Source: an uncultured Planctomycetales bacterium | Lineage (GTDB): Bacteria; Omnitrophota; Gorgyraeia; Gygaellales; Profunditerraquicolaceae | Assembly (NCBI GenBank): GCA_964427405.1 | Contig: CAYRUB010000006.1 | Location: forward strand, 15,558 to 79,557 | DNA: 64,000 bases | Reading direction: 5' to 3' | Part shown: positions 16,111 through 51,625 of the stretch, in pieces | Numbering within the stretch: the first letter of the stretch is position 1 | How the letters are laid out: the number at the start of each line of letters is the position of its first letter | Notes under the pieces: model-generated | What the model was told of the DNA's origin: nothing | What the model saw: the letters and a program-made list of their open reading frames with translations, nothing else | Database searches by the model: none | Program-made: the position numbers and the translations under genes

Positions 16111-16517
16111 GGGGGTGAAAGGGTTCGACTTAAGATATGTCGGATAAAAGCAGCATGCCGCGGAGGTAAGGTTAGCCGCGTTAACAACTCCTTACACAAT
16201 TTAAACGCAAACACGCAAGTGTCACGTTTAGGAACATTTGTCACGCCGTCATTTACGGCAAGACCTATGTTCGTACCAGCCTTCGGGCTTAATTAAGTCC
16301 GAAGCCTCTAACCGTCCTGCCTACGGGATGGATTAGGGCCTAAGTAGGCTAGTTCCGGCGGTTAGCCTTTGAAGCCGGGGCGAAATTAAAAAGGCTGCGC
16401 TTTGCAAATCCTGCCCCGCGGGAGTTGCAAAGGTAAGTTTAAAATGCGGGGCTAAGCATGTAGCGGCTTCTATGCGATTACTTAAGGACGGCGGTTCAAT
16501 TCCGCCCACCTCCACCA
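16111..16517 (+). ncRNA. ssrA: tmRNA (SsrA), standard one-piece form
   Basis: 5' GGGGGUGAAAGGGUUCGAC and 3' GGACGGCGGUUCAAUUCCGCCCACCUCCACCA tRNA-like ends; about 407 nt; immediately after smpB. Confidence 0.85.
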
Positions 16518-24728: not shown

Positions 24729-24803
24729 GGTGGCTATAGCTCAATTGGTTAGAGCGCTAGACTGTGGCTCTGGAGGTTGCGGGTTCGATCCCCGTTAGCC
24801 ACC
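24729..24803 (+). tRNA. tRNA-His(GTG) with encoded G-1
   Basis: G-1 plus acceptor GTGGCTA/TAGCCAC, anticodon loop CTGTGGC (anticodon GUG), T-loop GGGTTCGATCCCC, discriminator C. Confidence 0.85.
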
Positions 24804-24847
24804 CATAAACCTTGTATCTCATTGTAGCGCAATGAGTTACAACAACG

Positions 24848-24880
24848 CACCGACGGGGCAACCTGTCGGTGTTTTTTTAT
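24848..24880 (+). terminator. Rho-independent terminator after tRNA-His
   Basis: CACCGACGGGGCAACCTGTCGGTG hairpin followed by T7 run. Confidence 0.6.
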
Positions 24881-24905
24881 CTGGCGATGTCCCTAGGGTT
24901 TAGGG
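24874..24905. repeat. Left copy of ~32-bp direct repeat (TTTTTATCTGGCGATGTCC[C/G]TAGGG[T/C]TTAGG); candidate island boundary
   Basis: Near-identical sequence recurs at 60580-60611. Each copy starts in the T-run of a terminator. Confidence 0.5.
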
Positions 24906-25117
24906 CGTTATTCCCGTCGGAGAATTCTGTAGTATTTTAAAACAAGATCTCCGTCGAGGAAGAGGGGAAATTTTAAAGAAAATTGTTGGAAAATAGCGCA
25001 ATTCCTCTCGTAGTTTATGGGCGCTAGTTTATGCTATATTCGCGTAATAATGCGCTTATTTCTGCTTTGATTTTTGCCATAAACTAGAGGTGAGGAATAA
25101 TCTGGATAAGAGAGGCC

Positions 25118-26728
25118 TTAAGAGGTTATTTGGGTGAGTTTCTGCCACATCGCGTACTGCTTATCCCAGTCGAGCTCGTCGGTGATAGTCCGCAGTTTAT
25201 ACTCCGGGATTTCAAATAGGCATGGATCATTTTGAAGAACGATCGCTTCCTGAATGCGAGGCGAGAGGAAGAGAAAACTCATGATCTGGTTAATGCGCTG
25301 CTGGCTTAAGTTAAGCCATCCCGAAACTTCCTTAATGTCCTTGGTTTTGTTTTTATCGATTAACTCCTGTATCTGATGAGCAAGCAAGAGATTCTGGCGC
25401 AACTGTGGCTCAGATTGTATCAATCGATCCTTGGGCGTTATGGCGTGGTATTTCAGCTCTGCCTTGCTTACATTAAACTTGTGCGATTTCTGCGTACTAT
25501 TAAGAATAATTTCGAGGATTGCTGTCCCGCCGTCATATTTTATTTCTTTCACGATGTCCTTGAGGGCAGTTCTTTTTTGATCAAGAGTATAGGCTTCCCA
25601 TGATTCAGGTTTTAGCCTTTGGTCGTCAGTCAGTTTCCTGAGGTACTCCATAACCTTTGCTTCCATGAGGCCGGCATTTACAAGCCGTGTAGGGCACTCC
25701 TGGTAGCCTCGCTTCTGCGCGTTTAAGCAGACATAATGAAAATAACGCAGCTTGCCGTATTTGATGTTATGGGTAAGATACATTGATGAATTGCAGGCCC
25801 GGCACCGCAATAGCCTGCTTAATAGGCCTATATTCTTGCCGATAGGCTTACGAGTTCCGAATTTTAGAGGGTTTGTATGCAGTGCATCTTGGACTTTCAT
25901 AAAGATTCCATCATCGAGGATTCGCTCATGTTCTCCGGGATAAAGCACATCTTGGTATCTAACTTTACCAGCATAATAGGCGTTTATGAGGATTTTCTCT
26001 ATGCCGGTGCTTGAAAACTTAACGTATCCGCGTTGTTTACCTTCTGCAAGCTTACGGACTTTTGTCCTGTAGCCTTTTGAATTTGCGATTTTAGCGACCT
26101 CTAAAAGCGAACGTTCTTTTAAGTATAGGTCAAAGAGTTCTCGCACAATTTTTGCTTCCTCTGGATTTATGATGAGTTTATGGTTTTCTTTGTCAAGATC
26201 GTAGCCTAAAGGTATGCATCCGCCGACATATTTGCCTTTTTTCCTGGCAGCGCCCATTTTATCTCGGGTCCTTTCACTGATGATTTCGCGTTCAAACTGA
26301 GCGAAGGAGAGGAGTATATTCAAGGTAAGCCTGCCCATCGAGTTTTGTGTATTGAAATGCTGCGTTACAGAAACAAAGGTGACGCTATTCTGGTCAAAAA
26401 ACTCTAATAACTGGCTGAAATCAAGCAGTGAGCGCGACAATCTATCAACTTTATAGACTACAACGCAGTTAATCCTATGGGCTTTAATATCATCAATAAG
26501 CTTCTGTAAGGCAGGTCTGTCAGTATTGGCTCCTGTAAAGCCACCGTCATCGTAGCGATCTGGTAAAATGATCCAGCCTTCAGACTTTTGGCTTTGGATG
26601 TAGCTTTCAGCGGATTCTCGTTGATTATCTAGAGAAGTGAATTCCTGCTCTAACCCTTCTGTTGTAGATACACGCGTATAAATAGCGCATTTAATTGCAG
26701 GTTTTTCTTTATCTGTCTTTTTTTCCAT
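25118..26728 (-). CDS. Large serine recombinase (resolvase/invertase N-terminal domain + recombinase domain + zinc ribbon)
   Basis: N-terminal AIYTRVSTTEGLEQEFTSLDNQRE with catalytic Ser. 536 aa. C-terminal CRAC...CLNAQ...C zinc-ribbon and coiled-coil region typical of phage serine integrases. Confidence 0.9.
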   Translation of the reverse strand: MEKKTDKEKPAIKCAIYTRVSTTEGLEQEFTSLDNQRESAESYIQSQKSEGWIILPDRYDDGGFTGANTDRPALQKLIDDIKAHRINCVVVYKVDRLSRSLLDFSQLLEFFDQNSVTFVSVTQHFNTQNSMGRLTLNILLSFAQFEREIISERTRDKMGAARKKGKYVGGCIPLGYDLDKENHKLIINPEEAKIVRELFDLYLKERSLLEVAKIANSKGYRTKVRKLAEGKQRGYVKFSSTGIEKILINAYYAGKVRYQDVLYPGEHERILDDGIFMKVQDALHTNPLKFGTRKPIGKNIGLLSRLLRCRACNSSMYLTHNIKYGKLRYFHYVCLNAQKRGYQECPTRLVNAGLMEAKVMEYLRKLTDDQRLKPESWEAYTLDQKRTALKDIVKEIKYDGGTAILEIILNSTQKSHKFNVSKAELKYHAITPKDRLIQSEPQLRQNLLLAHQIQELIDKNKTKDIKEVSGWLNLSQQRINQIMSFLFLSPRIQEAIVLQNDPCLFEIPEYKLRTITDELDWDKQYAMWQKLTQITS

Positions 26729-26736: not shown

Positions 26737-27210
26737 CTATAGGTTAAAGAATGAGAATCCATTCCAATGCGCGCCTGTGAGCTCAAAAGCAACTGCTGAA
26801 AGGCTGCGGTAATATTTATCCTTATATTCAAAACCTTTATCCAATATTTTTACGTGAACATCCTGGTCTTTGTACTTTTTATAAATAACAGTACCGGGAA
26901 TAGGCAGCCGTTTATCTCGCATAAATGGGATAGAAACGACATTCTTCCCGGCAGAGATTACCTGTGGCCTGAGCGCCTTATTATTAATAGGATCGTATTT
27001 CTCAATAAGGTCGATAATCTGCATTTTGGCTTCATCTGAAAGCCCGCCTTTAGCCGCTTCTTGCAGCTTGTAAGTGATCTTTTTTATAAGATACGGCTTA
27101 TTAGCGCAGGGAGCCTCAGCAACGTTAAAGAGAGCATTGTGTCGCTCCTGGATTTCCGGTAGAGTCGCGTTTTTAAGCGCCTGTATTTCTTCTGAGATAT
27201 TCTCTTCCAT
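26737..27210 (-). CDS. Small protein adjacent to serine recombinase (DUF2924-like; possible recombination directionality/accessory factor)
   Basis: 157 aa, encoded immediately upstream of and co-directional with the recombinase, the position typical of DUF2924 genes. Assignment by context and size; weak sequence recall. Confidence 0.3.
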   Translation of the reverse strand: MEENISEEIQALKNATLPEIQERHNALFNVAEAPCANKPYLIKKITYKLQEAAKGGLSDEAKMQIIDLIEKYDPINNKALRPQVISAGKNVVSIPFMRDKRLPIPGTVIYKKYKDQDVHVKILDKGFEYKDKYYRSLSAVAFELTGAHWNGFSFFNL

Positions 27211-27354: not shown

Positions 27355-27531
27355 ATGGAAACCTTTACCGTAGAAGAATTAGCAAAATATCTTAAGTTAC
27401 ATGAATTCACGGTTCGGCGTCTCGCTAGAGAGGGGAAAATACCATCTTTTAAGGCAGGCGGTCAGTGGCGATTTCGTAAGGATGAAATTAATAAATGGTC
27501 GAAAGATAATAGAGAAAAACGCGAAGGTTAA
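27355..27531 (+). CDS. xis: Excisionase-family helix-turn-helix DNA-binding protein (58 aa; below ORF-track cut-off)
   Basis: METFTVEELAKYLKLHEFTVRRLAREGKIPSFKAGGQWRFRKDEINKW matches the excisionase/MerR-like HTH_17 pattern. AGGAG RBS 7 nt upstream. Divergent from the recombinase. Confidence 0.6.
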   Translation: METFTVEELAKYLKLHEFTVRRLAREGKIPSFKAGGQWRFRKDEINKWSKDNREKREG

Positions 27532-27552: not shown

Positions 27553-29682
27553 ATGAAATCAAAAGTTTATGAAAATTTAAAAGAAGATCAAATAAAATTA
27601 ATTCAACAGAAAGCACATGATTTTCTGGGAGCGCTTATCCAAGAAGATCAATATGTAGGAGAGCTCTATTCAATTAGTTATGAATATGGATTAGTTCAAA
27701 TTCATGATCGGCATAGGATGGAAGTTGGGGGGATCCCTGGGTTAAGTTTCTTGATTGCTACCCGTATTAAGCCAGGAGAATCAATTGATTATACGAAAGA
27801 AGATTCTTCAATAATTTTGTTAAGAGTCATGGATGCAGCCCCTTTACCTAACGCAAGTGAGATAGAGCGTATCCGAGTTCAAGCAGCTCAAAGAGCTACT
27901 GGTGAAGATAGTCATTGGGATGAAGCTGGACTTATGGATGGACAAACAGCTAACCTGCTTTCTTTTGCTGGAGTTAAATGCAGAGTAATTGGCACGTTCT
28001 ATCTTGAGCTTGTTGAGGGTAAAGAAAACACTGATCTCGCTATTCGTTTTGGAGGAGACTTATCCAATTACTATCCAAATAGAGGGCTGAAGGTATATAA
28101 ACCAAATGCGAAAGCGTTAGAGGAAATAGTAAATTATTCTGATCCAACAAATATTCAGGATCATTTTGAAAAGTACGGAAGCACTGAAAAAGTAAAGTTA
28201 GGACAAATACGCTATGCTTCAACCAATAGAAAATATCAGCAAATAGATAATGTTCCAGTGTATGTTCATCCTGCTGATCTTTTGTCTCAGAAGTCTGCAT
28301 TGTTTGGAATGACTCGTACTGGAAAGTCGAATACAACAAAGATTATAGCGAAGGCGATCTTTGAGTTGCGTAATCCGAAGGATAAAATTAGCAATTCGCT
28401 TCGAATTGGTCAAATAATTTTTGATCCCAATGGAGAATATGCCAATGAGAATGTTCAAGATAATAATAATGCATTGAAGAATATCTGGGAAATTAATTGT
28501 CCGGCTTCTGATGCGGATGCTAGAAAGAAACATAAAGCAAATGAAGTCGTTACCTATGGCATTTCTGCTCATCCTAATGATCCGGAAAGAAAAATGATGC
28601 TTCTAAATTTTTATGTTGATGATAATTTACAGATAGGTAAAGAAATTGTCGATAATCTTTTCTCATCAGAAGATCCGGTATATCTAAGAAATTTCTCCCA
28701 AGTAGTGTTTGAACTTCCAGATACTCAGGATTGGAGCGCAATGACTAGGTATCGTAGAAGAGTTCTTGCTTATAGAGCAATATTAAATCGAGCAGGTTTT
28801 ACCCCACCAGCAAATATTAGTCCAAATACCGATAGATTATTTAATCCGGAGTTAGTTACTGCCCTCAACAATTACACGGGCGATAATGAAGATTTGTATC
28901 ATGCTGCTGCTGGCATATTTTCAAATACAAATCCTTCATGGGGGCAAATTGCTGATGCGTTTGAATCTCTGGATAAGTTTATTAGAGATGGGCAGAGCAC
29001 CGGATACAGTAATTTTGAAAATTGGTATGTCAATACTCGTCCTAGTGCATCGGGAGAAAGATGGGCCGATGAGGATTTTAAAAAGCTGATCGGCATATTT
29101 CAATATCCAAATGGAATACGGAGAATTGGTCGAGTTGCAAATCAACATACTGCCTTGACAAGTACTGACTATGCAATCGATATTTATAATGATTTAAAGT
29201 TGGGGAGGTTAGTTATTGTTGATCAATCAAGTGGAGATTCGGAATTAAATGAAATGGCAGCGAGACGCATAATGAGGGCTATATTTGAAGAAAATAAGAA
29301 ATATTTTACTTCCGGGAAGATACCTCCTGAGATTATTGTTTTTGTAGAAGAAGCTCATAATTTGTTGCCTCCAGATAAGGAAAAAGATTATAAGGATATA
29401 TGGGTAAGAACTGCAAAAGAAGGAGCCAAGCTAAGACTCGGTTTAGTTTATGCGACACAAGAAGTTAGCAGCATACAGAAAAATATATTGAAAAATACAG
29501 CAAATTGGTTTATCGCCCATCTTAATAATACTGATGAGACAAAAGAATTGTGTAAATATTATGACTTTGCTGATTTTGAACCTTCCATAAGACGCGCCCA
29601 AGACAAAGGGTTTCTAAGAGTTAAAACCTTAAGCAATCCTTTTGTTATACCAGTTCAAATTGATAAATTTGAGGTGAAGTGA
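27553..29682 (+). CDS. HerA-like (DUF87/FtsK-HerA superfamily) ATPase
   Basis: Walker A LFGMTRTGKSNTTK, Walker B IIVFVEEAHNLLP (DEAH-like), N-terminal barrel-like region. ATG at 27553 is preceded by GGAGGG; the track's TTG at 27541 is less likely. Confidence 0.6.
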   Translation: MKSKVYENLKEDQIKLIQQKAHDFLGALIQEDQYVGELYSISYEYGLVQIHDRHRMEVGGIPGLSFLIATRIKPGESIDYTKEDSSIILLRVMDAAPLPNASEIERIRVQAAQRATGEDSHWDEAGLMDGQTANLLSFAGVKCRVIGTFYLELVEGKENTDLAIRFGGDLSNYYPNRGLKVYKPNAKALEEIVNYSDPTNIQDHFEKYGSTEKVKLGQIRYASTNRKYQQIDNVPVYVHPADLLSQKSALFGMTRTGKSNTTKIIAKAIFELRNPKDKISNSLRIGQIIFDPNGEYANENVQDNNNALKNIWEINCPASDADARKKHKANEVVTYGISAHPNDPERKMMLLNFYVDDNLQIGKEIVDNLFSSEDPVYLRNFSQVVFELPDTQDWSAMTRYRRRVLAYRAILNRAGFTPPANISPNTDRLFNPELVTALNNYTGDNEDLYHAAAGIFSNTNPSWGQIADAFESLDKFIRDGQSTGYSNFENWYVNTRPSASGERWADEDFKKLIGIFQYPNGIRRIGRVANQHTALTSTDYAIDIYNDLKLGRLVIVDQSSGDSELNEMAARRIMRAIFEENKKYFTSGKIPPEIIVFVEEAHNLLPPDKEKDYKDIWVRTAKEGAKLRLGLVYATQEVSSIQKNILKNTANWFIAHLNNTDETKELCKYYDFADFEPSIRRAQDKGFLRVKTLSNPFVIPVQIDKFEVK

Positions 29683-31034
29683 TGCCATATGAGGGAGAAT
29701 TTGCCCAGTATCGATCTATAGCTCGAATTACTGAGAGCGAGCGAGTTAAGGGATTGTTGTCAAAATGCGATGTGCGGCTACCCCAAGATGTTGCAAAAAT
29801 AGATATCTCTTCGCTTACGGCATCTATAAAAGCAAGTAACTGGTTGCCAAGATGGATTGTTGCAGTAGATGGTAGCAAGCAAGAAGTGCCTCTTAGGAGT
29901 GGTTTTCCCGGTGCGGAAATTTCGTATCTTACAGTAGCAAGCGTTATGTTAAATGTAGAAAAAATGAGAAAGCTTGACGCTGTGCGTCCTGTTGATCCTA
30001 AAGAATTCCGGAAAATAGAACAGGCCGACTCGATTGATACTGCTTTTCCAAGTTGCAATGTAATACTCAAAGGCGAAGTTTCTGCGGAGAGTTCTTTAAG
30101 GCGAGCCTTATTTGAAACATTAAATAATGTAAAAATGACCGATGATGGAGAAAACTTGCTTGATACTTTTGAAGCATTGTTAAAATATAAAAGCGGCAAA
30201 GAACAGAAATGCCCGTATGAGGATTGCCAAAAAAAAGATCAACAATATTCCAAGAGTAACGGAAGTTACATTTGTTCGTGTAGCTTGAAGAGACAACTTT
30301 ATAGCACTGATTCATTGCGTATTCATGAGGGTATGAATTCAGCTGGAAGTAATGGTGCGATGTTTGAAGAGGTGCTTCAAGTCCTTGAACGCCTCTGGGT
30401 TATCCATATTCTGAGAACAATCGAGCATAAAAAATGGATTTCAAGTCTTAAGAGACTCGCCTTCGTTCTTGATGGTCCGCTTGCTGTTTTTGGACATCCA
30501 GCGTGGCTTAGCGAAGCGATTTATCAGGAATTGACCCGTATCAATGGCATTGCCAAAAAGATTAATGGAGAAGATATTCTTTTCGTGGGAATTGAAAAAA
30601 CAGGGTTCTTCGCAAAACATCTCGAAGACCTCGATCATCATGAAGATGGCTCGACAAATAGACTGCCAAACCAAACAGTAATTTTGTTAACAGATAACTA
30701 TATAAAGGATAATGTAATATTTTCACAAAGCGAAAAATTCTATGGTGAGCAAACTTATTTTGGACGCAAGTTTTTTTATAAAACAAAATCCGGCGCTTTG
30801 ATAGTTGCCTCTTTGCCTTTTTACTGCGAAGAGGATAAAGACCTAAATGTTGCTACTCCGGATCGATTCCCACGATTATCCGATGCTTTAAATTTGTTGG
30901 ATGAATTGGCTTCAACGCGTTATCCTAATGCCTTGATTCCTATTATTTCTGCCCATGCAGAGGCAGCAATTCCTATGAATTTAGGTAGTAGGGTTCTAGA
31001 GAAATTGGCACGGGAGTTAGTGGATAAAGTATAA
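29679..31034 (+). CDS. NurA-like nuclease
   Basis: IVAVDGSKQE (NurA motif I IDGS-like), FVLDGPLAVFG (second DG motif), FVGIEKTGF (GISKTS-like). GTGATG overlap with the upstream ATPase gene implies translational coupling. Confidence 0.5.
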   Translation: MMPYEGEFAQYRSIARITESERVKGLLSKCDVRLPQDVAKIDISSLTASIKASNWLPRWIVAVDGSKQEVPLRSGFPGAEISYLTVASVMLNVEKMRKLDAVRPVDPKEFRKIEQADSIDTAFPSCNVILKGEVSAESSLRRALFETLNNVKMTDDGENLLDTFEALLKYKSGKEQKCPYEDCQKKDQQYSKSNGSYICSCSLKRQLYSTDSLRIHEGMNSAGSNGAMFEEVLQVLERLWVIHILRTIEHKKWISSLKRLAFVLDGPLAVFGHPAWLSEAIYQELTRINGIAKKINGEDILFVGIEKTGFFAKHLEDLDHHEDGSTNRLPNQTVILLTDNYIKDNVIFSQSEKFYGEQTYFGRKFFYKTKSGALIVASLPFYCEEDKDLNVATPDRFPRLSDALNLLDELASTRYPNALIPIISAHAEAAIPMNLGSRVLEKLARELVDKV

Positions 31035-32122
31035 TGTTGAAAAAACAAAAAAAATACAATCACAGGATTGACCGTTGGGCTGCTGTTGGGCCTTACTATG
31101 CTATGTTTCCCATAGATTTTATTTTCAATGTTATTGAAAAGCATTCAAAAAATGGAGATATTGTTCTTGACCCTTTTGCCGGAAGGGCTTCAAGTATTTA
31201 TGCTGCAAGTTTACTCGGTAGAAGAGGAGTTGGCATTGAAATTAATCCTGTTGGATGGATATATGGCAAGGTAAAACTTAATCCAGCTCCTAAAAGTTAT
31301 GTTTTAAAACGACTGTTAGAAATAGATGGTTTAAAAAAACGTTACAATTCTGTTCAGAGGAACTTGCCAGAATTTTTTCGCCGTTGTTATTCACCCCAAG
31401 TTCTTTCATTTTTAATATCTGCTCGACGTAACTTAAAATGGAGAAATAATGCTGTTGATAGGACTTTAACAGCCATAATTCTTATTTATTTGCATGGGAA
31501 AATCCATCAATCACTTTCTAATCAGATGCGTCAAGGTAAAGCCATGTCCCCTCAGTACTCTGTTAAATGGTGGAAAAAGAATAAACTAAGCCCTCCTAAT
31601 ATTAATCCGGTAGATTTCTTGACGAAACGAATTGATTGGCGATATGCCAAAGGGAAGCCTAACTTTACGAAGAGCAAAATTTTGTTCGGGAATAGTGTAA
31701 AAATATTGCAAGATTTAAAAAATAGGGAGAATAAGAAATTTGGCTTACTAGTGACATCGCCTCCTTATTTTAATGTAACAAACTATTATTATGATCAATG
31801 GCTCAGGCTATGGTTATTAGGAGATCAGCGCCAACAACCTGAGAAAATGTACGCAGGTAAATTCGCATCAAAGCCAAATTATGAAAATTTGTTAAAATCA
31901 GTTTTTAAGAATTCCGCCCGTCTTATGAAAAAAAATGCAGTGATATATGTAAGAACGGATGCAAGAGATTTTACTTTGAAGACAACTATAGATGCATTGC
32001 ATGCAGCATTTCCCAAGAAAGTGCTCAAAACTTATCGGAGGCCATTTAAAAAACAGACACAAACTGCTTTGTATGGAGATAAAACTAAGAAGCCCGGAGA
32101 GGTAGATGTTATACTACGATAA
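31034..32122 (+). CDS. DNA methyltransferase (N6-adenine/N4-cytosine type; motif I before motif IV)
   Basis: Motif I VLDPFAGRASS and motif IV LLVTSPPYFNV. TAATG overlap with the NurA-like gene. Confidence 0.7.
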   Translation: MLKKQKKYNHRIDRWAAVGPYYAMFPIDFIFNVIEKHSKNGDIVLDPFAGRASSIYAASLLGRRGVGIEINPVGWIYGKVKLNPAPKSYVLKRLLEIDGLKKRYNSVQRNLPEFFRRCYSPQVLSFLISARRNLKWRNNAVDRTLTAIILIYLHGKIHQSLSNQMRQGKAMSPQYSVKWWKKNKLSPPNINPVDFLTKRIDWRYAKGKPNFTKSKILFGNSVKILQDLKNRENKKFGLLVTSPPYFNVTNYYYDQWLRLWLLGDQRQQPEKMYAGKFASKPNYENLLKSVFKNSARLMKKNAVIYVRTDARDFTLKTTIDALHAAFPKKVLKTYRRPFKKQTQTALYGDKTKKPGEVDVILR

Positions 32123-32173
32123 ATTTTTTTGGTTAAGATTACTTAAAAATTTATTTTTAAATAGGGAAATAAG

Positions 32174-33214
32174 TTGAGCATAAAATTAATTACATATAAC
32201 GATGTTCTTCAGGAGCTACCACAGACAAAATATCTACTTTTAGGCAATGGTTTTAGTATCGCCTGTAGTAAGAAGTTTGAGTATCCAAACCTATTTGAAT
32301 ATGTCAGAAAAACCAGCCTTAGTACTCATGTATTAAAAGTATTTGAATATCTGGGCACAAATAATTTTGAAGGTGTAATGCGTTTGCTTGAGGATTCCAA
32401 ATGGATAGCAAAGCACTATGGATTGGAACGCGCTAAGGGTGTAAAGGCCTCTATTTCTAAAGACTTAACATCAATAAAGAAATCTCTTGTTTCTGCTATT
32501 GCTAAAACGCATCTTCCTAATCCTGGCACCATATCTGATGATCGGAAAAATAAATGTGTTGTTTTTCTTGAGCCCTATCAGAACGTCTTTACAACTAATT
32601 ATGATTTGTTACTTTATTGGGTTGCAAATCATGGACAAGATAAATTAAAAGAGCAAGATGGTTTTAGGGCATCTATCGATGATCCAAGCGCTGCATATCT
32701 GGTTTTTAGCGAGCATCTTGGTCAAAATAAAGGTATTTTATTTTTACATGGAGCATTGCATCTTTATGTTGAAGGGGGAGAAACCCGGAAACATTCCTGG
32801 ATAAGAAGCAGTAAGTCATTAATTGAGCTAATAAAAGAAGGTTTAGAAAAAGGTCAATACCCGCTTTTTGTTGCGGAAGGAAAAGCAGATAAAAAAATGG
32901 CTCAGATTCAAAGAAGTGGGTATTTATTTTATTGCTTAGGGAAGCTTGAGCGTATTGCAAGCCCATTGGTAGTTTATGGTTTGTCTTTCAGTGAGAATGA
33001 TCAACATATTATTAATGCGATTGCCGATAATCGTAATCTCGATCGTGTTTTTATAGGTTTACATGGGAAGATAGATAGTCGTACTAATAAGCAAATTATA
33101 CATATCGGTGACTGGATGATGAAAAGGCGCAAAGAATATATAACCAAAGGACGGAAAGCAAAGGAGCTCAATATTAGTTATTTCAGATCTGATACAGCTC
33201 CGGTTTGGGATTAA
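32174..33214 (+). CDS. SIR2-like (SIR2_2/DUF4917-like) protein, paralog A (TTG start)
   Basis: N-terminal LLLGNGFSIA (GxGxS Rossmann motif of SIR2_2). C-terminal VVYGLSFSENDQH, related to GYSxPDAD of the two paralogs. Confidence 0.5.
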   Translation: MSIKLITYNDVLQELPQTKYLLLGNGFSIACSKKFEYPNLFEYVRKTSLSTHVLKVFEYLGTNNFEGVMRLLEDSKWIAKHYGLERAKGVKASISKDLTSIKKSLVSAIAKTHLPNPGTISDDRKNKCVVFLEPYQNVFTTNYDLLLYWVANHGQDKLKEQDGFRASIDDPSAAYLVFSEHLGQNKGILFLHGALHLYVEGGETRKHSWIRSSKSLIELIKEGLEKGQYPLFVAEGKADKKMAQIQRSGYLFYCLGKLERIASPLVVYGLSFSENDQHIINAIADNRNLDRVFIGLHGKIDSRTNKQIIHIGDWMMKRRKEYITKGRKAKELNISYFRSDTAPVWD

Positions 33215-33220
33215 TAAAAA

Positions 33221-34303
33221 ATGGTAGAGGATATTATTTTCTTAGGAGCTGGTGCTTCAAGGGCAGAAGGCGCGCCTTTGCAGGCCGATTTATTTAAAGA
33301 ATATTTCAAATTGTGTAAACCTACTTTAGATAGCAGGCCGGGTGAGAAGACTTTATACAATCGAATGCGTAAATTTTTCTCTGATTTCTTTGGAATCAAT
33401 ATTAATATCGATAATCTGGATAAAGTTTCTTTTCCTACCTTTGAAGAAGCCCTAGGAATTTTAGAAATAGCTATAAGAAGAGAAGAACTCTTTAGGGGAT
33501 GGATATCAGCCTCAGCTAATTCAGACATAAAGATACAGCGTTATAGACAGAGTTTGATTTATCTTATTGGTACTGTTCTTGAGCGTGCCCTCCGAGGAAA
33601 AGCTACTTATCATCGAAGATTAGTGCAGCAATTACAGAACCAAAAAAGGCTTATCCAGACAGCTTTTATCAGTGTGAATTATGAAATATTAATCGACAAT
33701 GCCATAATGGAGTCTGAGCATATTGATTATGGAGTGCCTACTCTAAAAAGTCAAAATCCTTATTCAGAGCATTTGATGATACCTAACAAAGAGCCTATTT
33801 GCGTATATAAATTGCATGGTTCGCTAAATTGGCTTTACTGTCCGACTTGTATTTCATTAACTATTACTCCATTTACTAAGTCGGGAGCTGAGCTTGTTCA
33901 TGAATCTAAACTATGTGAAAAATGCATGAGTAAGGTAGTTCCGATAATTGTTCCACCCACTTTCTTTAAGGTTATGTCGAACCACTTTTTAGAGCAGATA
34001 TGGTATAAAACCGATGAGCTTTTAAGAACTGCTAGAAGAATCATTTTTTGCGGTTATTCCTTTCCAGATGCCGATATTCATATTAGATATTTGCTGAAGA
34101 GAGCAGAGCTATATCAAACTCGCGGATTAGAAATTTATGTGATTAATTATCATAACTCTAAAACCGTAGAAGAAGCTCGAAACGAAGTAAACCGATACAA
34201 ACGTTTCTTCAAAAATAAAGGGTCAGTTCATTATTTGCAAGGTTCGTTTGAGCAGTTTTGTGAATCTGGTAAGCCCGACATGCCCGAATTTGAATTCACC
34301 TAA
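33221..34303 (+). CDS. SIR2-like protein with Zn-ribbon insert, paralog B
   Basis: IIFLGAGASRAEGAP N-terminus, HGSLNWLYCPTC...CEKC zinc-ribbon, FCGYSFPDADIH C-terminal motif. Confidence 0.6.
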   Translation: MVEDIIFLGAGASRAEGAPLQADLFKEYFKLCKPTLDSRPGEKTLYNRMRKFFSDFFGININIDNLDKVSFPTFEEALGILEIAIRREELFRGWISASANSDIKIQRYRQSLIYLIGTVLERALRGKATYHRRLVQQLQNQKRLIQTAFISVNYEILIDNAIMESEHIDYGVPTLKSQNPYSEHLMIPNKEPICVYKLHGSLNWLYCPTCISLTITPFTKSGAELVHESKLCEKCMSKVVPIIVPPTFFKVMSNHFLEQIWYKTDELLRTARRIIFCGYSFPDADIHIRYLLKRAELYQTRGLEIYVINYHNSKTVEEARNEVNRYKRFFKNKGSVHYLQGSFEQFCESGKPDMPEFEFT

Positions 34304-35514: not shown

Positions 35515-35550
35515 GAAACATATCAATTAACCATGACCATGGAGGTGTTT

Positions 35551-36825
35551 ATGGACATCAGAAAGATTAAGATTGAGGCGATTAATCCGGCGCCGTATAA
35601 TCCGCGTAAAGATCTTAAACCGGGAGACCCTGAGTATGAGAGCTTGAAGAAAAGCATACTTACGCATGGTTGTGTGCAGTTGCTTGTTTGGAATATCCGC
35701 ACAGGCAATCTTGCCGGCGGGCATCAGACATTTAAGGTGCAGCTTGAGCTTGGCGTAAAGGAAGTTCAGGTGTGCGTTGTTGATTTGTCTCTTGAGCAAG
35801 AAAAGGCGCTAAATATCGCCCTCAATAAAATTCAGGGAAGTTGGGACAATGAAAAACTCGCAGCGCTTTTAGATGAATTAACGAAAATACCGAATTTTGA
35901 TACAACCGTTACGGGCTTTAATGCCGTAGAGATTGGGCAGATTTTTGACCGCTACCAAGAACCTAAGGACGTGGATGACTATGATTTTCAATCGGCCCTG
36001 GATGATATTGTAGAACCAGTGACAAAAAGAGGCCAGGTAATTACGCTCGGCGAAAGGCATAAAGTTATGTGTGGAGATGCGACGAGTAAAGAGGATCTTA
36101 ATATACTTCTCCAAGGAGAGAAAGTTGCTCTTTTGGACATTGATTGGCCCTATAACGTAAATTATATGGGAGGAAGCTGCCCGCGTTCTGATACTCGTCC
36201 TAAGGGGTCTCGTAAATGGGACGCTATTTATTCAGACAATATGCCGCAAAATGAATATGAAGCATTCATGCTGAAGGTTCTTGTTAATATAAAACCTTAC
36301 TTAAATCCCGGCGCAGCTTTCTATCAGTGGCAAGCACATCGACAGCTTGGTCCGCTTTATCAGATTCTTACTCAACTTGATTTTCATGTTTCCTGCCTTA
36401 TCTGTTGGGCTAAAGAGTCAGCTGCAATATCTTATGCGGACTATAGTTTCCAGACAGAACAGGCGGTTTATGGATTTTTGAAAGGACAAAGTCACTATTT
36501 CGCAGGGAAGCCAGGCGAGTCGAATTTGTGGCAGGTAAATCGTGATTCTACTAAACTTTATTTGCATCCATGCCAGAAGCCAGCAATTTTAGCCGAACGC
36601 GCAATCAAAAATTCATCAAGACGTAATGATATAGTTCTCGATGTTTTTTTAGGATCAGGATCTGTTTTGATTGCTGCAGAAAACCTTGACCGGCGTTGTT
36701 TTGGGATGGAGCTTGATCCGCGCTATTGTGATGCGATTGTTAGGAGATATATTGCTTTCGTAGGCGTAGATAAGGTTTCGGAAGATTTGCGTAAGAAATA
36801 TCACAAGGAGGTTTCCAATGGATGA
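35551..36825 (+). CDS. ParB-like nuclease domain fused to beta-class DNA methyltransferase (phage-type ParB-MTase)
   Basis: N-terminal ParB/Srx-like region (KIKIEAINPAPYNPRK). MTase motif IV (DWPY-like) precedes motif I (VLDVFLGSGS). Start chosen at MDIRKI after GGAGG. Confidence 0.7.
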   Translation: MDIRKIKIEAINPAPYNPRKDLKPGDPEYESLKKSILTHGCVQLLVWNIRTGNLAGGHQTFKVQLELGVKEVQVCVVDLSLEQEKALNIALNKIQGSWDNEKLAALLDELTKIPNFDTTVTGFNAVEIGQIFDRYQEPKDVDDYDFQSALDDIVEPVTKRGQVITLGERHKVMCGDATSKEDLNILLQGEKVALLDIDWPYNVNYMGGSCPRSDTRPKGSRKWDAIYSDNMPQNEYEAFMLKVLVNIKPYLNPGAAFYQWQAHRQLGPLYQILTQLDFHVSCLICWAKESAAISYADYSFQTEQAVYGFLKGQSHYFAGKPGESNLWQVNRDSTKLYLHPCQKPAILAERAIKNSSRRNDIVLDVFLGSGSVLIAAENLDRRCFGMELDPRYCDAIVRRYIAFVGVDKVSEDLRKKYHKEVSNG

Positions 36826-37498
36826 TAGTAAATCAATATATGACGATGAAGAGCCTATTCTTTCTCTTATTCAGCAAATCAAAGATGGTACCTTAAATCC
36901 TAAAACTTTACCTAGGGAAAAAAGACAGTGGTGTGTAGAGTTTCTTTCTAGCGAAGGCTATACAGAGGCGCAGATTGCACAAGTAATAATGAGAGCCGAG
37001 AAAACTGTGTATCGTGATTTGATAGAGATACAGGATCGTAATGCCATGACGCCGGATATTAATTCGGCTAAACGCATTGTAGGAAATATGTTTCAGAAGG
37101 CTATGACACATCATAAGTATCTAATGCGACTTGCGCGCAACCCAGATGCTTCTAATGGAGAAAAAACTCAATCGGAGTTTCTGGCGTGGCGCGTTTTAAA
37201 GGAGGTGGTAGAAAAAATGCAAACATTAGGGTATCTTCCCCTGAAGCCTCAGGAGATTGTAGAAGATATTTTTCATCACGTAACAAATGGGAATGGTGAG
37301 GAAGGAATTACTGAAGCTAAAAATATGATAGGTGAGATTGAGCGCGCAGCAAAAGAAGCCGGAACGCTTGATCTAGAGACCGAAGAGAAGATTAGGGCTA
37401 TAAGGACAAAGATTGAGCAAGTAGAGATTAATCAGGAAATAAATAAACTCAAGAATAAAGAAAATAAACCAAATGACACAAAAGGAGACTCAAAATGA
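36818..37498 (+). CDS. Putative terminase small subunit / DNA-binding protein
   Basis: 226 aa; HTH-like AQIAQVIMRAEKTVYRDL; position immediately upstream of and overlapping terminase large subunit. Confidence 0.35.
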   Translation: MDDSKSIYDDEEPILSLIQQIKDGTLNPKTLPREKRQWCVEFLSSEGYTEAQIAQVIMRAEKTVYRDLIEIQDRNAMTPDINSAKRIVGNMFQKAMTHHKYLMRLARNPDASNGEKTQSEFLAWRVLKEVVEKMQTLGYLPLKPQEIVEDIFHHVTNGNGEEGITEAKNMIGEIERAAKEAGTLDLETEEKIRAIRTKIEQVEINQEINKLKNKENKPNDTKGDSK

Positions 37499-39126
37499 AA
37501 AATAATATCGTAAGTGACCTATCAAGGCTAAGAAGGCAGGAAGGCAGCAAGTCGCTGCTTGCGTTCGCAAAGTTATATATGAAGCATCATTTAGAATGCG
37601 AGCTATCCCCGGCTCATCTTGAAATATACCGTATTCTTGGTACAGCAACTACCGAGAGAGGTAAAAAGATTGCCATCGCCGCACCGCGCGATTTCGGAAA
37701 AAGCACTATGGTTACCTTAATTTACATGGTTTACAGTATTTGTTATTCGAAAGAGAAATTTATTGTGATTATTTCGAATACAGCTTCACAGGCAAACCAG
37801 ATATTAGATAACATCAAAAAGGAGCTAACGGAAAATGAATTGCTAAAGCTGGACTTTCCGGAAGTATTTGAATCAAATGGTAAATTTAAATTGTTGCGCT
37901 GGAGGCAGTCAGATATAATCACCCGCAATAAGGTTTTGGTTTTAGCATTAGGTTCAGGTCAGCAGATACGCGGACGCAGATTCGGAGTCGCCCGCCCGAC
38001 TTTAGTTGTGGCTGATGATTTGGAGGATTCCGAGAATACCTTTGGAAAAGAATCGCGAGATAAGATGCAAGACTGGTATGAAAAGTCGGTTTTAAAGGTA
38101 GGTTCGGAGGATACCAATTATATTTTCATTGGTAACCTTTATCATCCCTATAGTTTACTAAGCGAGTATGTTTGTCCGGATAAGTATCCAACGTGGATTA
38201 AGAGGGTGTATTCCGCCATTGTAGTTTGGCCTAGACGTATGGATCTTTGGGAGGATAAATGGGCTAACATATACAACCATAAGATAGAATTCAATGGGGC
38301 GAGCGGCCCTGTGGTAGCTTATCAATATTATCAAGAGAATCAAATAGCGATGGACGAAGGAACTGAGCTTCTCTGGAATGCGCGATACAGCTTGCACAAG
38401 CTAATGGGAATACGGCAAGAAAATGAGCTTAGTTTTCTCTCTGAATTTCAAAATACGCCAGTTAATCTCAGGGATTGCCTTCTTGACATAGACAATATCG
38501 TATACTGGGATACATCCGAGCGATCCGTTGATGACCTGCTAAAGTCATTAGGTGATAACGTAAGGTTTTATGGCGCATGCGATCCGAGCCTTGGGTTAAG
38601 CACGGTTAAGGGGGATTTTTCGGCTATTATCGTATTGGCAAAAGACGAAGCCTCTAAGACGCTATATATCATAGTAGCCGACATAGAGCGCCGGCCAATT
38701 GAAAAAATAGTTGATGATATTTTAGCTTATTCCCTGAGGTATAAATTTATTAAGTTTGGAATAGAGGGTAATCATTTCCAGCGAGTTCTTGTTGATTTAG
38801 TTAAGGAAAAGGGGGAGAAGGCAGGACTTTATATCCAGCTTGAGACAGTGATCAATAAGGATGACAAGATTGCGAGGATTCAGTCTTTGCGGACGTGTTT
38901 AAAAAGTGGGAACTTACAATTTAGCAAGAAACATAGACAACTTCTGGAGGAGTGCAGATATTTTCCGAAAGGCAAGCACGATGACGGATTGGATGCTTTA
39001 GAGATGGTAGTGAATCTATCTAATGATAATGGGTTTTCGTTCTGGTTTGCCGGCAGCACAAGGCCAAAGCCTTTCAGTGATGACGAAATAGGTCCCTATG
39101 GATACCGCGGATGGGGAAGAAGGTGA
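37495..39126 (+). CDS. Phage terminase large subunit
   Basis: ATPase P-loop IAIAAPRDFGKST, Walker B LVVADDLEDSEN, C-terminal RNase-H-like nuclease (YGACDPSLG...IIVLA...DDGLDALEM). Confidence 0.8.
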   Translation: MKNNIVSDLSRLRRQEGSKSLLAFAKLYMKHHLECELSPAHLEIYRILGTATTERGKKIAIAAPRDFGKSTMVTLIYMVYSICYSKEKFIVIISNTASQANQILDNIKKELTENELLKLDFPEVFESNGKFKLLRWRQSDIITRNKVLVLALGSGQQIRGRRFGVARPTLVVADDLEDSENTFGKESRDKMQDWYEKSVLKVGSEDTNYIFIGNLYHPYSLLSEYVCPDKYPTWIKRVYSAIVVWPRRMDLWEDKWANIYNHKIEFNGASGPVVAYQYYQENQIAMDEGTELLWNARYSLHKLMGIRQENELSFLSEFQNTPVNLRDCLLDIDNIVYWDTSERSVDDLLKSLGDNVRFYGACDPSLGLSTVKGDFSAIIVLAKDEASKTLYIIVADIERRPIEKIVDDILAYSLRYKFIKFGIEGNHFQRVLVDLVKEKGEKAGLYIQLETVINKDDKIARIQSLRTCLKSGNLQFSKKHRQLLEECRYFPKGKHDDGLDALEMVVNLSNDNGFSFWFAGSTRPKPFSDDEIGPYGYRGWGRR

Positions 39127-40983: not shown

Positions 40984-43900
40984 ATGGCTATCAAATCCTG
41001 CTTTATAGGTATCGATAAATATTTAGATCCTGGTATCCGAGACTTAACGGGAGCAGTTAAGGATGCAACTGTTTTATGGTCCTTATTTTCTGATACTGTC
41101 CCTTCCATACAGGCAGACATTCTCTGCAATGAACACGCCACCTTTGATCATGTGAAAAACAGTCTTTCTTCTCTTCTTGAGTCTGCTACCCAAGAAGATA
41201 CAATTATCATTTCATTTTCCGGACATGGCACAAATCACCATCGTCTCGTAACCCATAATACGTCCAAGGCAGCTCTGGATGATACCACGGTATCAATGGA
41301 TGAGCTGGCTGGTCTCTTCAGAAAATCTAAGGCCAACGCAATTCTTTTTATCCTAGATTGCTGTTTTAGCGGAGCTGTCCCCGCAAGAGTCATTGAAGAC
41401 AGCCCTGTCCCCCGGCAAGATACTTTTTCTTTTGAAAGCTTTGCCGGTAAAGGAAGAATATTAATTGCGGCATCAAGCGCCAATGAGCCAGCCTTCGAGT
41501 TACCTGGGTGCGGTCATGGGCTTTTAACAAAGGCCTTAATTGATGCATTACAAACTACAGATGATCAGGTTAACTTAGCATCGGCAATGGACAAAATTAC
41601 TCAGATGGTGAGAGCTGAGGCTGCACGCATTGGCGTAACACAAACGCCTGTTTGGTTTGGTTTCATAGAGGGAGGTTTAACTTTCCCCTCTCTTAGGCCA
41701 GGAGCTAATTTTTATAAGGCATTTCCGGAGAGCAAAGGAATTAGGATTAGTAAAGCGATCGCAGACCTGCAGGCATTTGGGATTTCCGCACCTATTCTTA
41801 TAGAATGGGCTAGGAATTTTAAAAACGGATTGAACAATCTACAACTAGAAGCAGTCAATAAGCACAGGATATTAGATGGTCAATCTTTGCTTGTGGTGGC
41901 ACCTACAAGTTCCGGTAAAACATTTATTGGAGAAATGGCCGCAGCAAAGGCAATATCTAAAGGTGAAAAGGTAATCTTTCTTTTGCCTTACCGCGCACTA
42001 GTAAATGAGAAATATGATTCTTTTGTTCAGTTATATACTGACAATTTAGGGATTCGTGTACTTCGATGCACAGGAGATTATTCTGATGAAACTGGTCCAT
42101 TTGTCCGTGGTAAATATGAAATCGCTATATTGACATTTGAAATGTTTCTCAATTTAGTCTTAGGGAATCCAACGTTATTAAGTCAGATTGGATTAATCGT
42201 GCTTGATGAAGCTCAATTCATTACGGATCCGACAAGAGGGATAACAGTTGAGTTATTGCTTACCTTTCTTTTAGCGAATGCTGAGAAAGGTATTAGACCT
42301 CAAATAATTGCCCTCTCAGCTGTCATTGGCGGTATAAACGATTTTGATCAATGGCTCGGAGTTGAGGCTATGATTTCGTATGAGCGTCCGGTACCCCTGG
42401 AAGAGGGCGTTATGGACCGTAGCGGTAATTTTCAATTTTTAACTCCTATTGCAGAAACTAAAATAACTTCATTAATTTCTTCATATAATATTGTGCAGCG
42501 GGGAAAGAATCCAAGTCAACAAGATATGATTGTTCCATTGATGCAATTCTTAATGAAAGATCTTAAAGAGAAAGTTATTATTTTTAGGAATACTCGCGGA
42601 CCCGCTGAAGGATGCGCTGGATATCTTAGTCGTGAATTAGGATTGCTCCCGGCAAATGATGTAATAGCACAATTGCCGAATCATGATCTTTCAACCACAT
42701 CTATGCATTTACGGGAATGTTTGTCCGGAGGCGTTGCTTTTCATAATACAAACCTTAACAGAATTGAAAAAGCGATTATAGAGCGTTCGTTTCGAGACCC
42801 CGCCGGTAAGATCAGGGTATTAGTGGCCACTACAACGCTGGCCGCTGGAATAAATACGCCGGCATCAACTGTTGTTTTGGCTGAACAGGAGTTTATCGGT
42901 GAAGATAACCGGCCATTTTCCATTGCAGAGTATAAAAACATGGCTGGTAGAGCTGGCAGGTTAGGTTTTAATGAGGATGGCAAGGCAATTATATTGGCTG
43001 AACAAATGCATGAAACACAGGTTCTTTTTAAGCGATACGTACTTGGAAAACCGGAGGCATTAAGTTCTTCGTTCGATTCTGAGAATGTTGAGACTTGGAT
43101 CATTCGGTTGTTGGCTCAAATTAAAGAGGTTCCCCGACATGATATTGTGCGATTACTGGCAAATACATACGGAGGATATTTAGCGAATCGCCAGAATCCG
43201 GGATGGCGAGAAAGTATAAAACAACATCTAGAGGAATTAATGGTAAAAATGTTATCGCTAGGTCTCTTGGAGCAAGAAGGAGATCTTGTACGGCTTACCT
43301 TACTGGGTCGGGTGTGTGGTCAATCTTCGTTATCGCTTCAATCTGCCATGCGACTTGTTGAATTATTAAAGTCCTTAGGGATGATCCAGGTTAGTTCTGA
43401 GTTTCTTATGGCGATTGTCCAAGGGTTACCCGAATCAGATAATACGTATACACCACTTTTCAAAAGAGGAAGCAAGGAAAGCGGAATGCCTCGGGTAGCA
43501 TCTGCCCGGGTTGGTAATGTTGTTGTTAATTTATTACAGAAGTTTGCCGGGGGAGAGATGTTTACATATTATGCCCGATGTAAAAGAGTAGCCATTTTAT
43601 TTGACTGGATTAATGGTGTGCCTACAGAAAGAATTGAGGCTGAATACACGATGAACCCTTACCAAGGTAAAGTAGGATATGGGGATATTCGGCGTTTTGC
43701 GGATGCCACTAGGTATCATCTTAGAACAGTCGCACCTATTGCTAGTCTTATTTTAGTTGATCGTTGCCCGACCGGTGAGTCAATAGATATTTTGCTAAAA
43801 CAATTAGAAGTTGGTGTGCCGAGAGACTCTCTTGATCTACTTAAACTACCAATCGGCTTTGAAAGAGGTGAATATTTGGCACTCTACGGAAAAGGTATCA

Positions 43901-44010
43901 AGACCTATGAAGCTTTCTGGGCTGTACCGGGAGAGAATCTTATTAGAATCCTTGGCTCAGATCGCGCTGCGGAAATTGAAAAGGCTCGAAGTAAATTAGT
44001 TGTTAAATAA
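40984..44010 (+). CDS. Caspase-like (peptidase C14) domain fused to SF2 (Ski2/Hel308-like) helicase with C-terminal winged-helix region
   Basis: Caspase His-Gly (ISFSGHG) and Cys (ILDCCFSGA) dyads. Helicase motifs I APTSSGKT, II VLDEAQF, III LSAV, VI MAGRAGRLG. 1008 aa. Confidence 0.7.
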   Translation: MAIKSCFIGIDKYLDPGIRDLTGAVKDATVLWSLFSDTVPSIQADILCNEHATFDHVKNSLSSLLESATQEDTIIISFSGHGTNHHRLVTHNTSKAALDDTTVSMDELAGLFRKSKANAILFILDCCFSGAVPARVIEDSPVPRQDTFSFESFAGKGRILIAASSANEPAFELPGCGHGLLTKALIDALQTTDDQVNLASAMDKITQMVRAEAARIGVTQTPVWFGFIEGGLTFPSLRPGANFYKAFPESKGIRISKAIADLQAFGISAPILIEWARNFKNGLNNLQLEAVNKHRILDGQSLLVVAPTSSGKTFIGEMAAAKAISKGEKVIFLLPYRALVNEKYDSFVQLYTDNLGIRVLRCTGDYSDETGPFVRGKYEIAILTFEMFLNLVLGNPTLLSQIGLIVLDEAQFITDPTRGITVELLLTFLLANAEKGIRPQIIALSAVIGGINDFDQWLGVEAMISYERPVPLEEGVMDRSGNFQFLTPIAETKITSLISSYNIVQRGKNPSQQDMIVPLMQFLMKDLKEKVIIFRNTRGPAEGCAGYLSRELGLLPANDVIAQLPNHDLSTTSMHLRECLSGGVAFHNTNLNRIEKAIIERSFRDPAGKIRVLVATTTLAAGINTPASTVVLAEQEFIGEDNRPFSIAEYKNMAGRAGRLGFNEDGKAIILAEQMHETQVLFKRYVLGKPEALSSSFDSENVETWIIRLLAQIKEVPRHDIVRLLANTYGGYLANRQNPGWRESIKQHLEELMVKMLSLGLLEQEGDLVRLTLLGRVCGQSSLSLQSAMRLVELLKSLGMIQVSSEFLMAIVQGLPESDNTYTPLFKRGSKESGMPRVASARVGNVVVNLLQKFAGGEMFTYYARCKRVAILFDWINGVPTERIEAEYTMNPYQGKVGYGDIRRFADATRYHLRTVAPIASLILVDRCPTGESIDILLKQLEVGVPRDSLDLLKLPIGFERGEYLALYGKGIKTYEAFWAVPGENLIRILGSDRAAEIEKARSKLVVK

Positions 44011-44084
44011 ATTAGGGCAATAAAAGATGACGGCTGTAATTTTTTAAAATAAAACATCACCATTTTTATCGGAAGTCGAATATC

Positions 44085-45728: not shown

Positions 45729-45876
45729 ATTTTACTCACTAATGTCTGTCTTTTGAACTATTCGTTCTTTGAAGCGGTAAAATTTCCCCACACTAAATTT
45801 TACCAAAACAAAGGTGGTTTCAAAAAGGAGATTGTTACAAAAAATGATTAGGACTTTTGGTATTCTTAGTTAGTTT

Positions 45877-51328: not shown

Positions 51329-51480
51329 ATACCCTTCCCGTAACATTATTTACCCTGTATACAGAGAGTCTTTCTGCCGCGCCGTATTTCTGGGCGTCCT
51401 TACCGGGGATACCTCTCAAATTTGCCCATAGCTGTTTACAGAGGGGGCTTCCCCTTGTCCAATATTACTGCCCGGCTTAA

Positions 51481-51625
51481 GAAGGAATGCCTAGTGGCAT
51501 AGAAACGCGTTGACAAATCAAATAGTTATGATAAATTAACGTCGTAAGTAGATTAAATCGTCCCGAGTTGTGAAGGGGTAAATCCCGGACGTTAAAAAAA
51601 TAAAACCTTCGTTGGGCTTAATACT
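51481..51625 (+). repeat. Copy 1 of a ~145-bp duplicated promoter/leader module (IR ATGCC-N4-GGCAT, TTGACA-16-TAAATT, terminator-like leader)
   Basis: Near-identical to 52988-53132. Contains an operator-like inverted repeat, a promoter and a GC stem plus T-run just before the gene start. Confidence 0.6.

Follow-up and report, generated by a model that had tools for sequence, protein, structure and literature searches.

Three adjacent genes encoding a HerA-like ATPase, a NurA-like nuclease and a DNA methyltransferase (MTase) occupy positions 27553-32122 of a 64,000-nucleotide (nt) stretch of contig CAYRUB010000006.1 from an uncultured bacterium. The whole stretch is referred to as the window, all positions are those of the window, and the three genes are hereafter termed the triad. 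Comparison with homologous loci and with solved proteins suggests that the triad is probably a processive restriction module of the TdpAB type from which host DNA is protected by methylation, i.e., a defence or addiction system. The triad moves horizontally as a block, and the functional unit is almost certainly these three genes, not the five (the triad and two SIR2-like genes behind it) that the original prediction had combined into one system.

Gene organization

All five open reading frames (ORFs) lie on the + strand at the coordinates originally predicted, and the motifs quoted for them could be read from the sequence and are conserved. The first gene (27553-29682, +) encodes a 709-amino-acid (aa) protein of the HerA/DUF87 family, a predicted hexameric DNA translocase resembling TdpA (Pfam DUF87, 5e-13; PADLOC HerA models, up to 4e-18). 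It is followed by a gene for a 450-aa NurA-family nuclease with a predicted RNase H fold, resembling TdpB (29682-31034, +; PF09376, 5e-12, 46.2 bits against a cut-off of 21), and by one for a 362-aa DNA MTase of the N6_N4 family (31034-32122, +; Pfam PF01555, 9e-16; PADLOC MTase_II, 1e-20). The reported stop/start overlaps are real: the HerA stop and the NurA ATG share one base (TGATG), as do the NurA stop and the MTase ATG (TAATG). The two SIR2-like genes, said to follow within 60 nt, lie behind gaps of 51 nt (MTase to DUF4917) and 6 nt (DUF4917 to SIR2_2). Across the gene block the G+C content falls from ~0.42 to 0.35-0.38. A promoter and terminator scan of the locus gave signals no better than shuffled expectation and did not define operon boundaries.

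Conservation and inheritance of the triad

A scan of one genome per species recovered 80 loci, which were then searched by tblastn with the window proteins. The order HerA-NurA-MTase and the common strand were kept in every one of these loci in which the contig was long enough, at 45-69% identity, and such recurrence implies that the arrangement of the first three genes is not due to chance. The hosts span at least 15 phyla: Cyanobacteria, Acidobacteriota, Chloroflexota, Armatimonadota, Bacteroidota, Poribacteria, Latescibacterota, Planctomycetota, Deinococcota, Gammaproteobacteria, Ignavibacteria, Caldisericales and Firmicutes are represented, together with a bacterium of the candidate phyla radiation (CPR) and an archaeon. 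Among the carriers that are in culture are Pseudanabaena sp. PCC 6802, Flectobacillus rivi and Mariniradius sediminis. The pairwise identities of the three proteins correlate with r of 0.87-0.94 (65 loci), a value reached in 0 of 999 permutations, which indicates that the triad is inherited as a block.

The surroundings of the triad are not conserved. DUF87, NurA and MTase genes stand between unrelated flanks in three neighbourhoods, those of a cyanobacterium, a gammaproteobacterial symbiont and an acidobacterium. Among 150 flanking ORFs, 206 Pfam families were found, each in three loci at most, and there is therefore no conserved fourth gene beside the triad. The neighbours include a Type III restriction endonuclease, HNH, GajB, a DRT reverse transcriptase, PtuA, a dGTPase, PemK toxins and CRISPR-associated transposon (CAST) transposition genes. 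A phage-borne system was considered and rejected, as IMG/VR viral contigs held no close relative of the triad and two Vibrio prophage records held only a relative of 28% identity.

Many metagenome contigs of 4.2-6 kb (L176, L177, L178 and others) consist of exactly the three triad genes and 80-280 nt of flanking sequence. That these ~5 kb contigs represent a small circular element was rejected, since they have neither terminal overlap nor inverted repeats. It seems that assembly tends to stop where the cassette begins or ends, which would be expected if the cassette occupies several contexts within one community. In Bacteroidota-type loci an ORF of ~86 aa overlaps the MTase stop (L054, L057 and L058, 12489-12749; L069, 4881-5150; L075, 4896-5153), and it may be a lineage-specific fourth gene.

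The HerA-like ATPase

The ATPase has a Walker A motif GMTRTGKS (aa 252-259; 28306-28329) and a Walker B motif VFVEEAH (aa 596-602; 29338-29358), both invariant in 74 sequences, and its homologues are 64-73% identical across phyla. In a sequence search of the PDB its best match was TdpA (8wet, 8wfd, 8y1k; E 3.8e-13), with SIR2-HerA, DUF4297-HerA and Sulfolobus HerA ranking behind (3e-7 to 5e-5). The AlphaFold2 (AF2) model is poor (pLDDT 65.6, and below 50 in the ATPase core), so that its top Foldseek match, which was again TdpA (8wfd_A, 6e-10), is taken as supporting evidence only. The protein scores far below the NCBIfam cut-offs for antiphage HerA (HerA_antiphage, 35.3 bits against 800; HerA_antiphage_2, 31.6 against 850) and likewise far below those of the repair HerA equivalogs (NF040937, 44 bits against 800; NF040819, 40 against 970).

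The NurA-like nuclease

The nuclease carries the motifs VDGS (D63), LDGPL (D264) and GIEKTG (303-308), and D63, D264 and GIEKTG are conserved. About 1,500 close relatives share 55-73% identity, and a profile search of 1.84 billion representatives returned 812 relatives, 299 of them at E <= 1e-30, so that the family is distinct and of medium size. Searches of the PDB by sequence with the protein or its profile gave no match, and its likeness to TdpB rests on structure comparison. An insertion with four cysteines (C177, C182, C198 and C200; 30210-30281) is invariant in a 25-sequence alignment and is modelled as a region with two short strands. It is probably a zinc ribbon and could serve as a DNA-reading or partner-binding element.

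The methyltransferase

Motif I of the MTase (LDPFAGRAS, aa 45-53; 31166-31192) precedes motif IV (SPPY, aa 242-245; 31757-31768). The protein is thus circularly permuted relative to the Pfam model, and its N-terminal stretch matches positions 159-213 of the PF01555 profile. The LDPF.G and TSPPY segments do not vary among 73 sequences. Of the solved proteins, TTHA0409 (PDB, 5e-7) and CcrM are the nearest. SPPY is typical of N4-cytosine MTases, and this motif suggests that the product is N4-methylcytosine or possibly N6-methyladenine.

The same MTase family accompanies deep relatives of the triad, in which NurA is only 23-28% identical. It was found on a plasmid of the archaeon Halorarius in the order DUF87-NurA-MTase, and on a Deferribacter megaplasmid in the changed order MTase-DUF87-NurA, interrupted by an insertion sequence. 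It also occurs beside a more divergent HerA module in a sister island of the one in the window (L092). The MTase has thus co-evolved with the module as a component dedicated to it and is not an exchangeable restriction-modification (R-M) part. For the close family, the 80-locus survey turned up no NurA that lacks the MTase. In the Vibrio prophage relative, HerA and NurA lie between an integrase and an excisionase, and an unrelated Dam-like MTase lies on the opposite strand.

Relationship to TdpABC and proposed mechanism

Among solved proteins, those closest to HerA and NurA of the window are TdpA and TdpB, respectively, and a gene for a TdpB-type nuclease with the NurA fold adjoins the TdpA-like gene. 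The TdpA hexamer is said by An et al. (2025) to degrade DNA together with TdpB, with phosphorothioates blocking both translocation and nuclease activity on self DNA; TdpA reportedly reads the DNA backbone. Both systems are also compact, their three genes encoding a HerA-like hexameric translocase, a nuclease of the NurA fold and one enzyme for modification. The likeness is distant, as structural alignments give 14-16% identity. Among phosphorothioate R-M systems TdpABC is the third, and of its three genes tdpC alone makes the mark (PMC12914056). The window modification gene, in contrast, encodes an N6_N4 MTase and not the ATP-using phosphorothioation enzyme TdpC, and the surveyed loci have no further conserved gene next to the triad. 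The ATPase is longer than its TdpABC counterpart (709 aa versus 586), as is the nuclease (450 versus 358), which has the four-cysteine insertion, and the triad hosts are mesophilic and very diverse whereas TdpABC comes from thermophiles (An et al. 2025, doi 10.1038/s41589-024-01832-w).

In the proposed mechanism, the HerA-like ATPase would assemble as a ring translocase and, in complex with NurA, would thread and degrade double-stranded DNA in an ATP-driven, processive reaction like that of the homologous TdpA-TdpB. The dedicated MTase would mark the DNA of the host and thereby protect it, so that marked DNA would be spared and unmethylated incoming phage or plasmid DNA destroyed. The triad would then be an R-M-like defence or addiction module in which base methylation replaces the phosphorothioate mark of TdpC and is sensed in a mode that we can only infer.

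Several observations weigh against this assignment. Backbone reading by TdpA leaves the sensing of a base methyl group by a ring translocase unexplained, and the defence role of the triad family and its methylation-dependent protection are inferred. The conservation of the MTase is even, with no hypervariable target-recognition segment, unlike classical R-M systems, which diversify their specificity. Certain triad loci adjoin housekeeping genes, e.g., those for Hsp70 and ribonucleotide reductase (RNR). PADLOC models matched the other four proteins of the original prediction (as HerA, MTase_II, PDC-S21 and Aga_SIR2), and PADLOC 2023 holds no model for the nuclease, hence no independent curation backs its role in defence. 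In the ICETh1 operon of Thermus, the one operon of this domain content that has been studied by experiment, DNA donation to other cells depends strictly on the NurA-like protein and on TdtA, and loss of the methylase is tolerated with minor effects (PMC5365140, PMC7767461). Finally, a variant on a plasmid of Tolypothrix sp. PCC 7910 has no MTase (L087, 3623-10326). This stretch of the plasmid encodes an HTH regulator, DUF87, NurA, a small ORF and a large protein with an exonuclease domain, and may be a modification-independent relative.

A broader proposition is that the triad represents a widespread and previously unnamed R-M class, a TdpAB-homologous shredder held off host DNA by base methylation from a dedicated permuted MTase; this is possible but clearly less likely than the restriction module itself. 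In such a class the specificity of the MTase appears to be conserved from archaea to CPR bacteria. Literature searches returned no description of a HerA-NurA-methylase cassette as a defence system. TdpABC restriction and the ICETh1 operon of NurA-like, TdtA and methylase genes are already known; the triad is probably an antiviral system based on methylation and hitherto uncharacterised. The initial statement that the combination matches no described system has to be qualified accordingly, by TdpABC, by ICETh1 (PMC5365140) and by the methylation-associated defence system (MADS), whose mad8 model matches the ATPase.

If the triad does act in this way, restriction by a HerA-NurA shredder would be a modular principle that extends beyond thermophiles with phosphorothioate DNA and is coupled to ordinary DNA methylation, a coupling spread over at least 15 phyla, archaea and CPR bacteria included. 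Catalogues of defence systems would gain a compact three-gene system with a mode of self-recognition distinct from the site-specific cleavage of Types I-IV, and a test case would be available for how a ring motor tells marked from unmarked DNA. The Thermus ICETh1 operon might then be reinterpreted. The triad genes are currently annotated as 'DSB repair nuclease NurA' (DSB, double-strand break) and 'DUF87', and defence finders could mis-call the window locus as SIR2-HerA.

A possible role in DNA donation

The alternative that survives best, although it is unlikely, is that the triad is a machine for DNA donation or transfer ('transjugation'), in which the NurA-like protein and the ATPase process DNA and pump it out, the methylase is an accessory, and the whole serves the mobility of an element. 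This alternative stems from ICETh1, an element integrated at a tRNA gene, in which Tth111II, the NurA-like TTC1878 (377 aa), TdtA (TTC1879) and a PF01555 methylase (TTC1880, 410 aa) are encoded by a co-transcribed operon (PMC5365140). When compared by description rather than by sequence, its content of a NurA-like protein, a HerA/FtsK-family ATPase and a PF01555 methylase is the same as that of the triad, and in ICETh1 the first two of these are needed for donation. In the window, too, the triad is part of an integrated element and has a tRNA gene and a recombinase nearby, and L092 carries an ICETh1-like gene order; its version of the module (a 376-aa protein, DUF87 and MTase) is nearer to ICETh1 in order and sizes than the window triad is.

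The order in ICETh1, however, is NurA-ATPase-MTase, and ICETh1 needs an extra Type IIG enzyme, Tth111II, which is absent from the window triad. At the other triad loci, genes for a recombinase, a Type IIG enzyme or conjugation do not recur as conserved neighbours. The nearest solved relatives are the restriction proteins TdpAB, and a dedicated MTase that is strictly present and catalytically intact fits self-protection better than an accessory role. These observations favour a methylation-protected restriction module over a donation machine.

The SIR2-like genes and the sister islands

The fourth gene of the block encodes a DUF4917 sirtuin-like protein (32174-33214, +; Pfam DUF4917, 1e-50; PADLOC candidate PDC-S21, model PDLC04960, 5.4e-99, full length), and the fifth a 360-aa SIR2_2 protein (33221-34303, +; Pfam SIR2_2, 6.5e-8, 33 bits with the cut-off at 24.5; PADLOC Aga_SIR2, 4e-13). 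All of the profile searches proposed for the five proteins (HerA/DUF87, NurA PF09376, SIR2_2, DUF4917 and N6_N4_Mtase) thus returned matches. The SIR2_2 protein has a GAGAS motif, a conserved H199 and a four-cysteine zinc module, residues that are invariant in the alignment, and it is one of a large family. Sirtuin activity has been described for a DUF4917 protein of C. jejuni (PMC10421069).

The original prediction had an R-M-like logic with two effector arms, such that discrimination by methylation would drive both HerA-NurA restriction and NAD+ depletion by the SIR2_2 and DUF4917 proteins. For the ATPase, nuclease and MTase such a logic fits their strict co-inheritance and the fact that TdpA and TdpB, of a modification-based restriction system, are the nearest relatives; the SIR2 arm is not supported, and a five-gene system is very improbable. 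All five genes do point the same way, the gaps do not exceed 51 nt and no terminator signal between the genes is convincing (the scan being no better than shuffled expectation), SIR2-HerA systems exist, and in both the window and L092 the DUF4917-SIR2_2 pair immediately follows a module with HerA and MTase. The reciprocal surveys nevertheless failed to recover the block elsewhere: DUF4917 or SIR2_2 genes were present within 10 kb in 0 of the 80 triad loci, and HerA, NurA, MTase or DUF4917 neighbours in 0 of 80 metagenome loci of the SIR2_2 family (41-77% identity). The SIR2_2 family is therefore a mostly stand-alone family that is independent of the triad.

The sister islands contain other cargo in the same place. 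In L092 the upstream slot holds a DUF2924 gene, the 376-aa protein, a different DUF87 (27-35% identity) and an MTase (32% identity), followed by DUF4917 (88%), SIR2_2 (82%), a ParB-MTase (48%), a 220-aa protein (44%) and a terminase large subunit (TerL)-like protein (40%). In L179 the slot is occupied by an SMC_N/AAA_13 ATPase, and the remainder comprises DUF4917, SIR2_2, ParB-MTase, a 215-aa protein and, at the TerL position, a 440-aa ORF truncated where the contig stops. In L180, a Type I R-M system and HATPase_c lie upstream of SIR2_2; DUF4917 and the backbone genes are absent, and an HTH_Tnp_1 ORF comes next. The slot upstream of DUF4917-SIR2_2 is thus a variable cargo hotspot. Retention of the pair behind different cargo indicates that it belongs to the island lineage, and its identity between islands (82-88%, against 40-48% for the backbone) suggests that it moves on its own. 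The DUF4917 and SIR2_2 proteins are candidates for separate NAD-dependent defences.

The known SIR2-HerA (Gao_Her_SIR/Nezha) and DUF4297-HerA systems resemble the locus in combining a HerA hexamer with an effector, and a SIR2-like gene does lie less than 4 kb from HerA in the window. The window HerA, however, falls outside the SIR2-partner families, far below their antiphage models, and its conserved partners are NurA and the MTase, whereas the SIR2 neighbour is not conserved.

Further observations were made on these islands and on the SIR2_2 family. The module of L092 (454-4825, on a contig of JGI 3300038466) is a divergent second version in the same island slot. Its 376-aa protein has the NurA-like motifs TDGGN, FDGLL and GLAKHS, with no Pfam match and no significant NurA match, and its DUF87 protein (707 aa) is even closer to TdpA (E 5.5e-24). 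In Geobacter sulfurreducens (L094/L095, 4036-9099) a SIR2-like gene and a TumE/HVO_A0114 pair precede a SIR2_2 homologue, with two unknown genes after it, and tandem pairs of SIR2-like genes recur in the SIR2_2 family. A third SIR2-like gene of the window (50246-51328) is 24-26% identical to the SIR2_2 family and has a weak Aga_SIR2 match and no Pfam match.

Other HerA-NurA and R-M systems

Least probable of all is a housekeeping role in the resection of DSB ends by HerA-NurA, of the type found in archaea and Deinococcus, with the methylase adjacent by chance; the patchy distribution across phyla and the low equivalog scores both disfavour it. The Pfam NurA and DUF87 matches, the NCBI label of the homologues ('DNA double-strand break repair nuclease NurA') and a Rad50/SMC-like gene ~1.8 kb upstream in one locus (L001) would suit such a role, but linkage to Mre11/Rad50 is not conserved and the flanks vary. 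The two folds are the same, and presumably also the architecture of a ring motor that passes DNA on to a nuclease dimer, yet the triad is horizontally mobile, is always found with a methylase, and is less similar to these repair proteins than to TdpAB.

MADS is an eight-gene system that includes a kinase (bioRxiv 10.1101/2023.03.30.534895). Within the triad only two of its eight models find a match, mad8 (5e-15, to the ATPase) and, weakly, mad2 (1e-6), with none for NurA, and MADS is disfavoured for this reason; the conserved genes of the triad number three. Classical Type I-III R-M systems have in common with the triad an MTase with intact catalytic motifs, but here restriction would fall to the HerA-type ATPase and to NurA, with its RNase H fold, rather than to a PD-(D/E)xK or HNH nuclease or an SF2 helicase-nuclease.

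The island in the window

In the window, the triad fills the slot for variable cargo in a phage-related defence island that is integrated next to tRNA-His (24730-24804). Just inside the tRNA gene, a large serine recombinase (25118-26728, -; Pfam Resolvase, Recombinase and Zn_ribbon_recom) and a DUF2924 protein (26737-27210, -; Pfam DUF2924) form the integration module of the island, in agreement with the predicted location of the genes in an island next to a serine recombinase. DUF2924 is likewise found at the edge of L092. A small HTH_17 protein of the excisionase type (58 aa; 27355-27531, +; Pfam HTH_17, 1.8e-16) ends 21 nt upstream of HerA. The tblastn survey with the window proteins found no homologue of HTH_17 or of the recombinase in the 80 triad loci. 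A role for HTH_17 as a conserved controller of the triad was rejected, as no homologue lies just upstream of HerA in other triad loci, and the protein is probably the excisionase or a regulator of the island, outside the conserved triad.

Downstream of the SIR2-like genes, a row spanning 35533-39126 comprises a ParB_N-N6_N4 MTase fusion (35533-36825), a 226-aa ORF and a 543-aa protein that matches terminase large subunit models (TIGR01630, 60 bits, over the cut-off). This trio is kept in L092 and at least partly in L179. Conservation of a trio with a terminase-like gene makes the island look like a degraded prophage or phage satellite.

The island is rich in genes of defence type, which also include DUF4238 and the third SIR2-like gene. 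At 40984-46488 a fusion of a Peptidase_C14 caspase and a DEAD-box helicase, the latter matching Hachiman HamB models (2e-35), is followed by a Ser/Thr kinase matching PD-T4-6/mad6 models and then by HEPN AbiU2; this stretch may be another unusual defence module.

A second copy of the tRNA-His 3' end, as would mark attL and attR, was not found in the window. A 36-nt direct repeat of 89% identity (24874-24909 and 60580-60615) brackets ~35.7 kb from just past tRNA-His, and its two copies may be what is left of attachment sites or may belong to a dispersed intergenic element. Genes of housekeeping appearance (a histidine kinase and TrkH) lie inside the right end of this interval. Two further repeats were noted, a 75-nt intergenic repeat in three copies of 79-93% identity (56077-56151, 60412-60486 and 63128-63202) and a 162-nt repeat in two copies of 93% identity (51461-51622 and 52968-53129). 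A matching public contig (Logan SRR13007709) has one end inside tRNA-His and the other at the 162-nt repeat, at ~51.5 kb. The window also contains a tmRNA gene (16111-16517), the predicted tag peptide of which is unusually long (ANTQVSRLGTFVTPSFTARPMFVPAFGLN).

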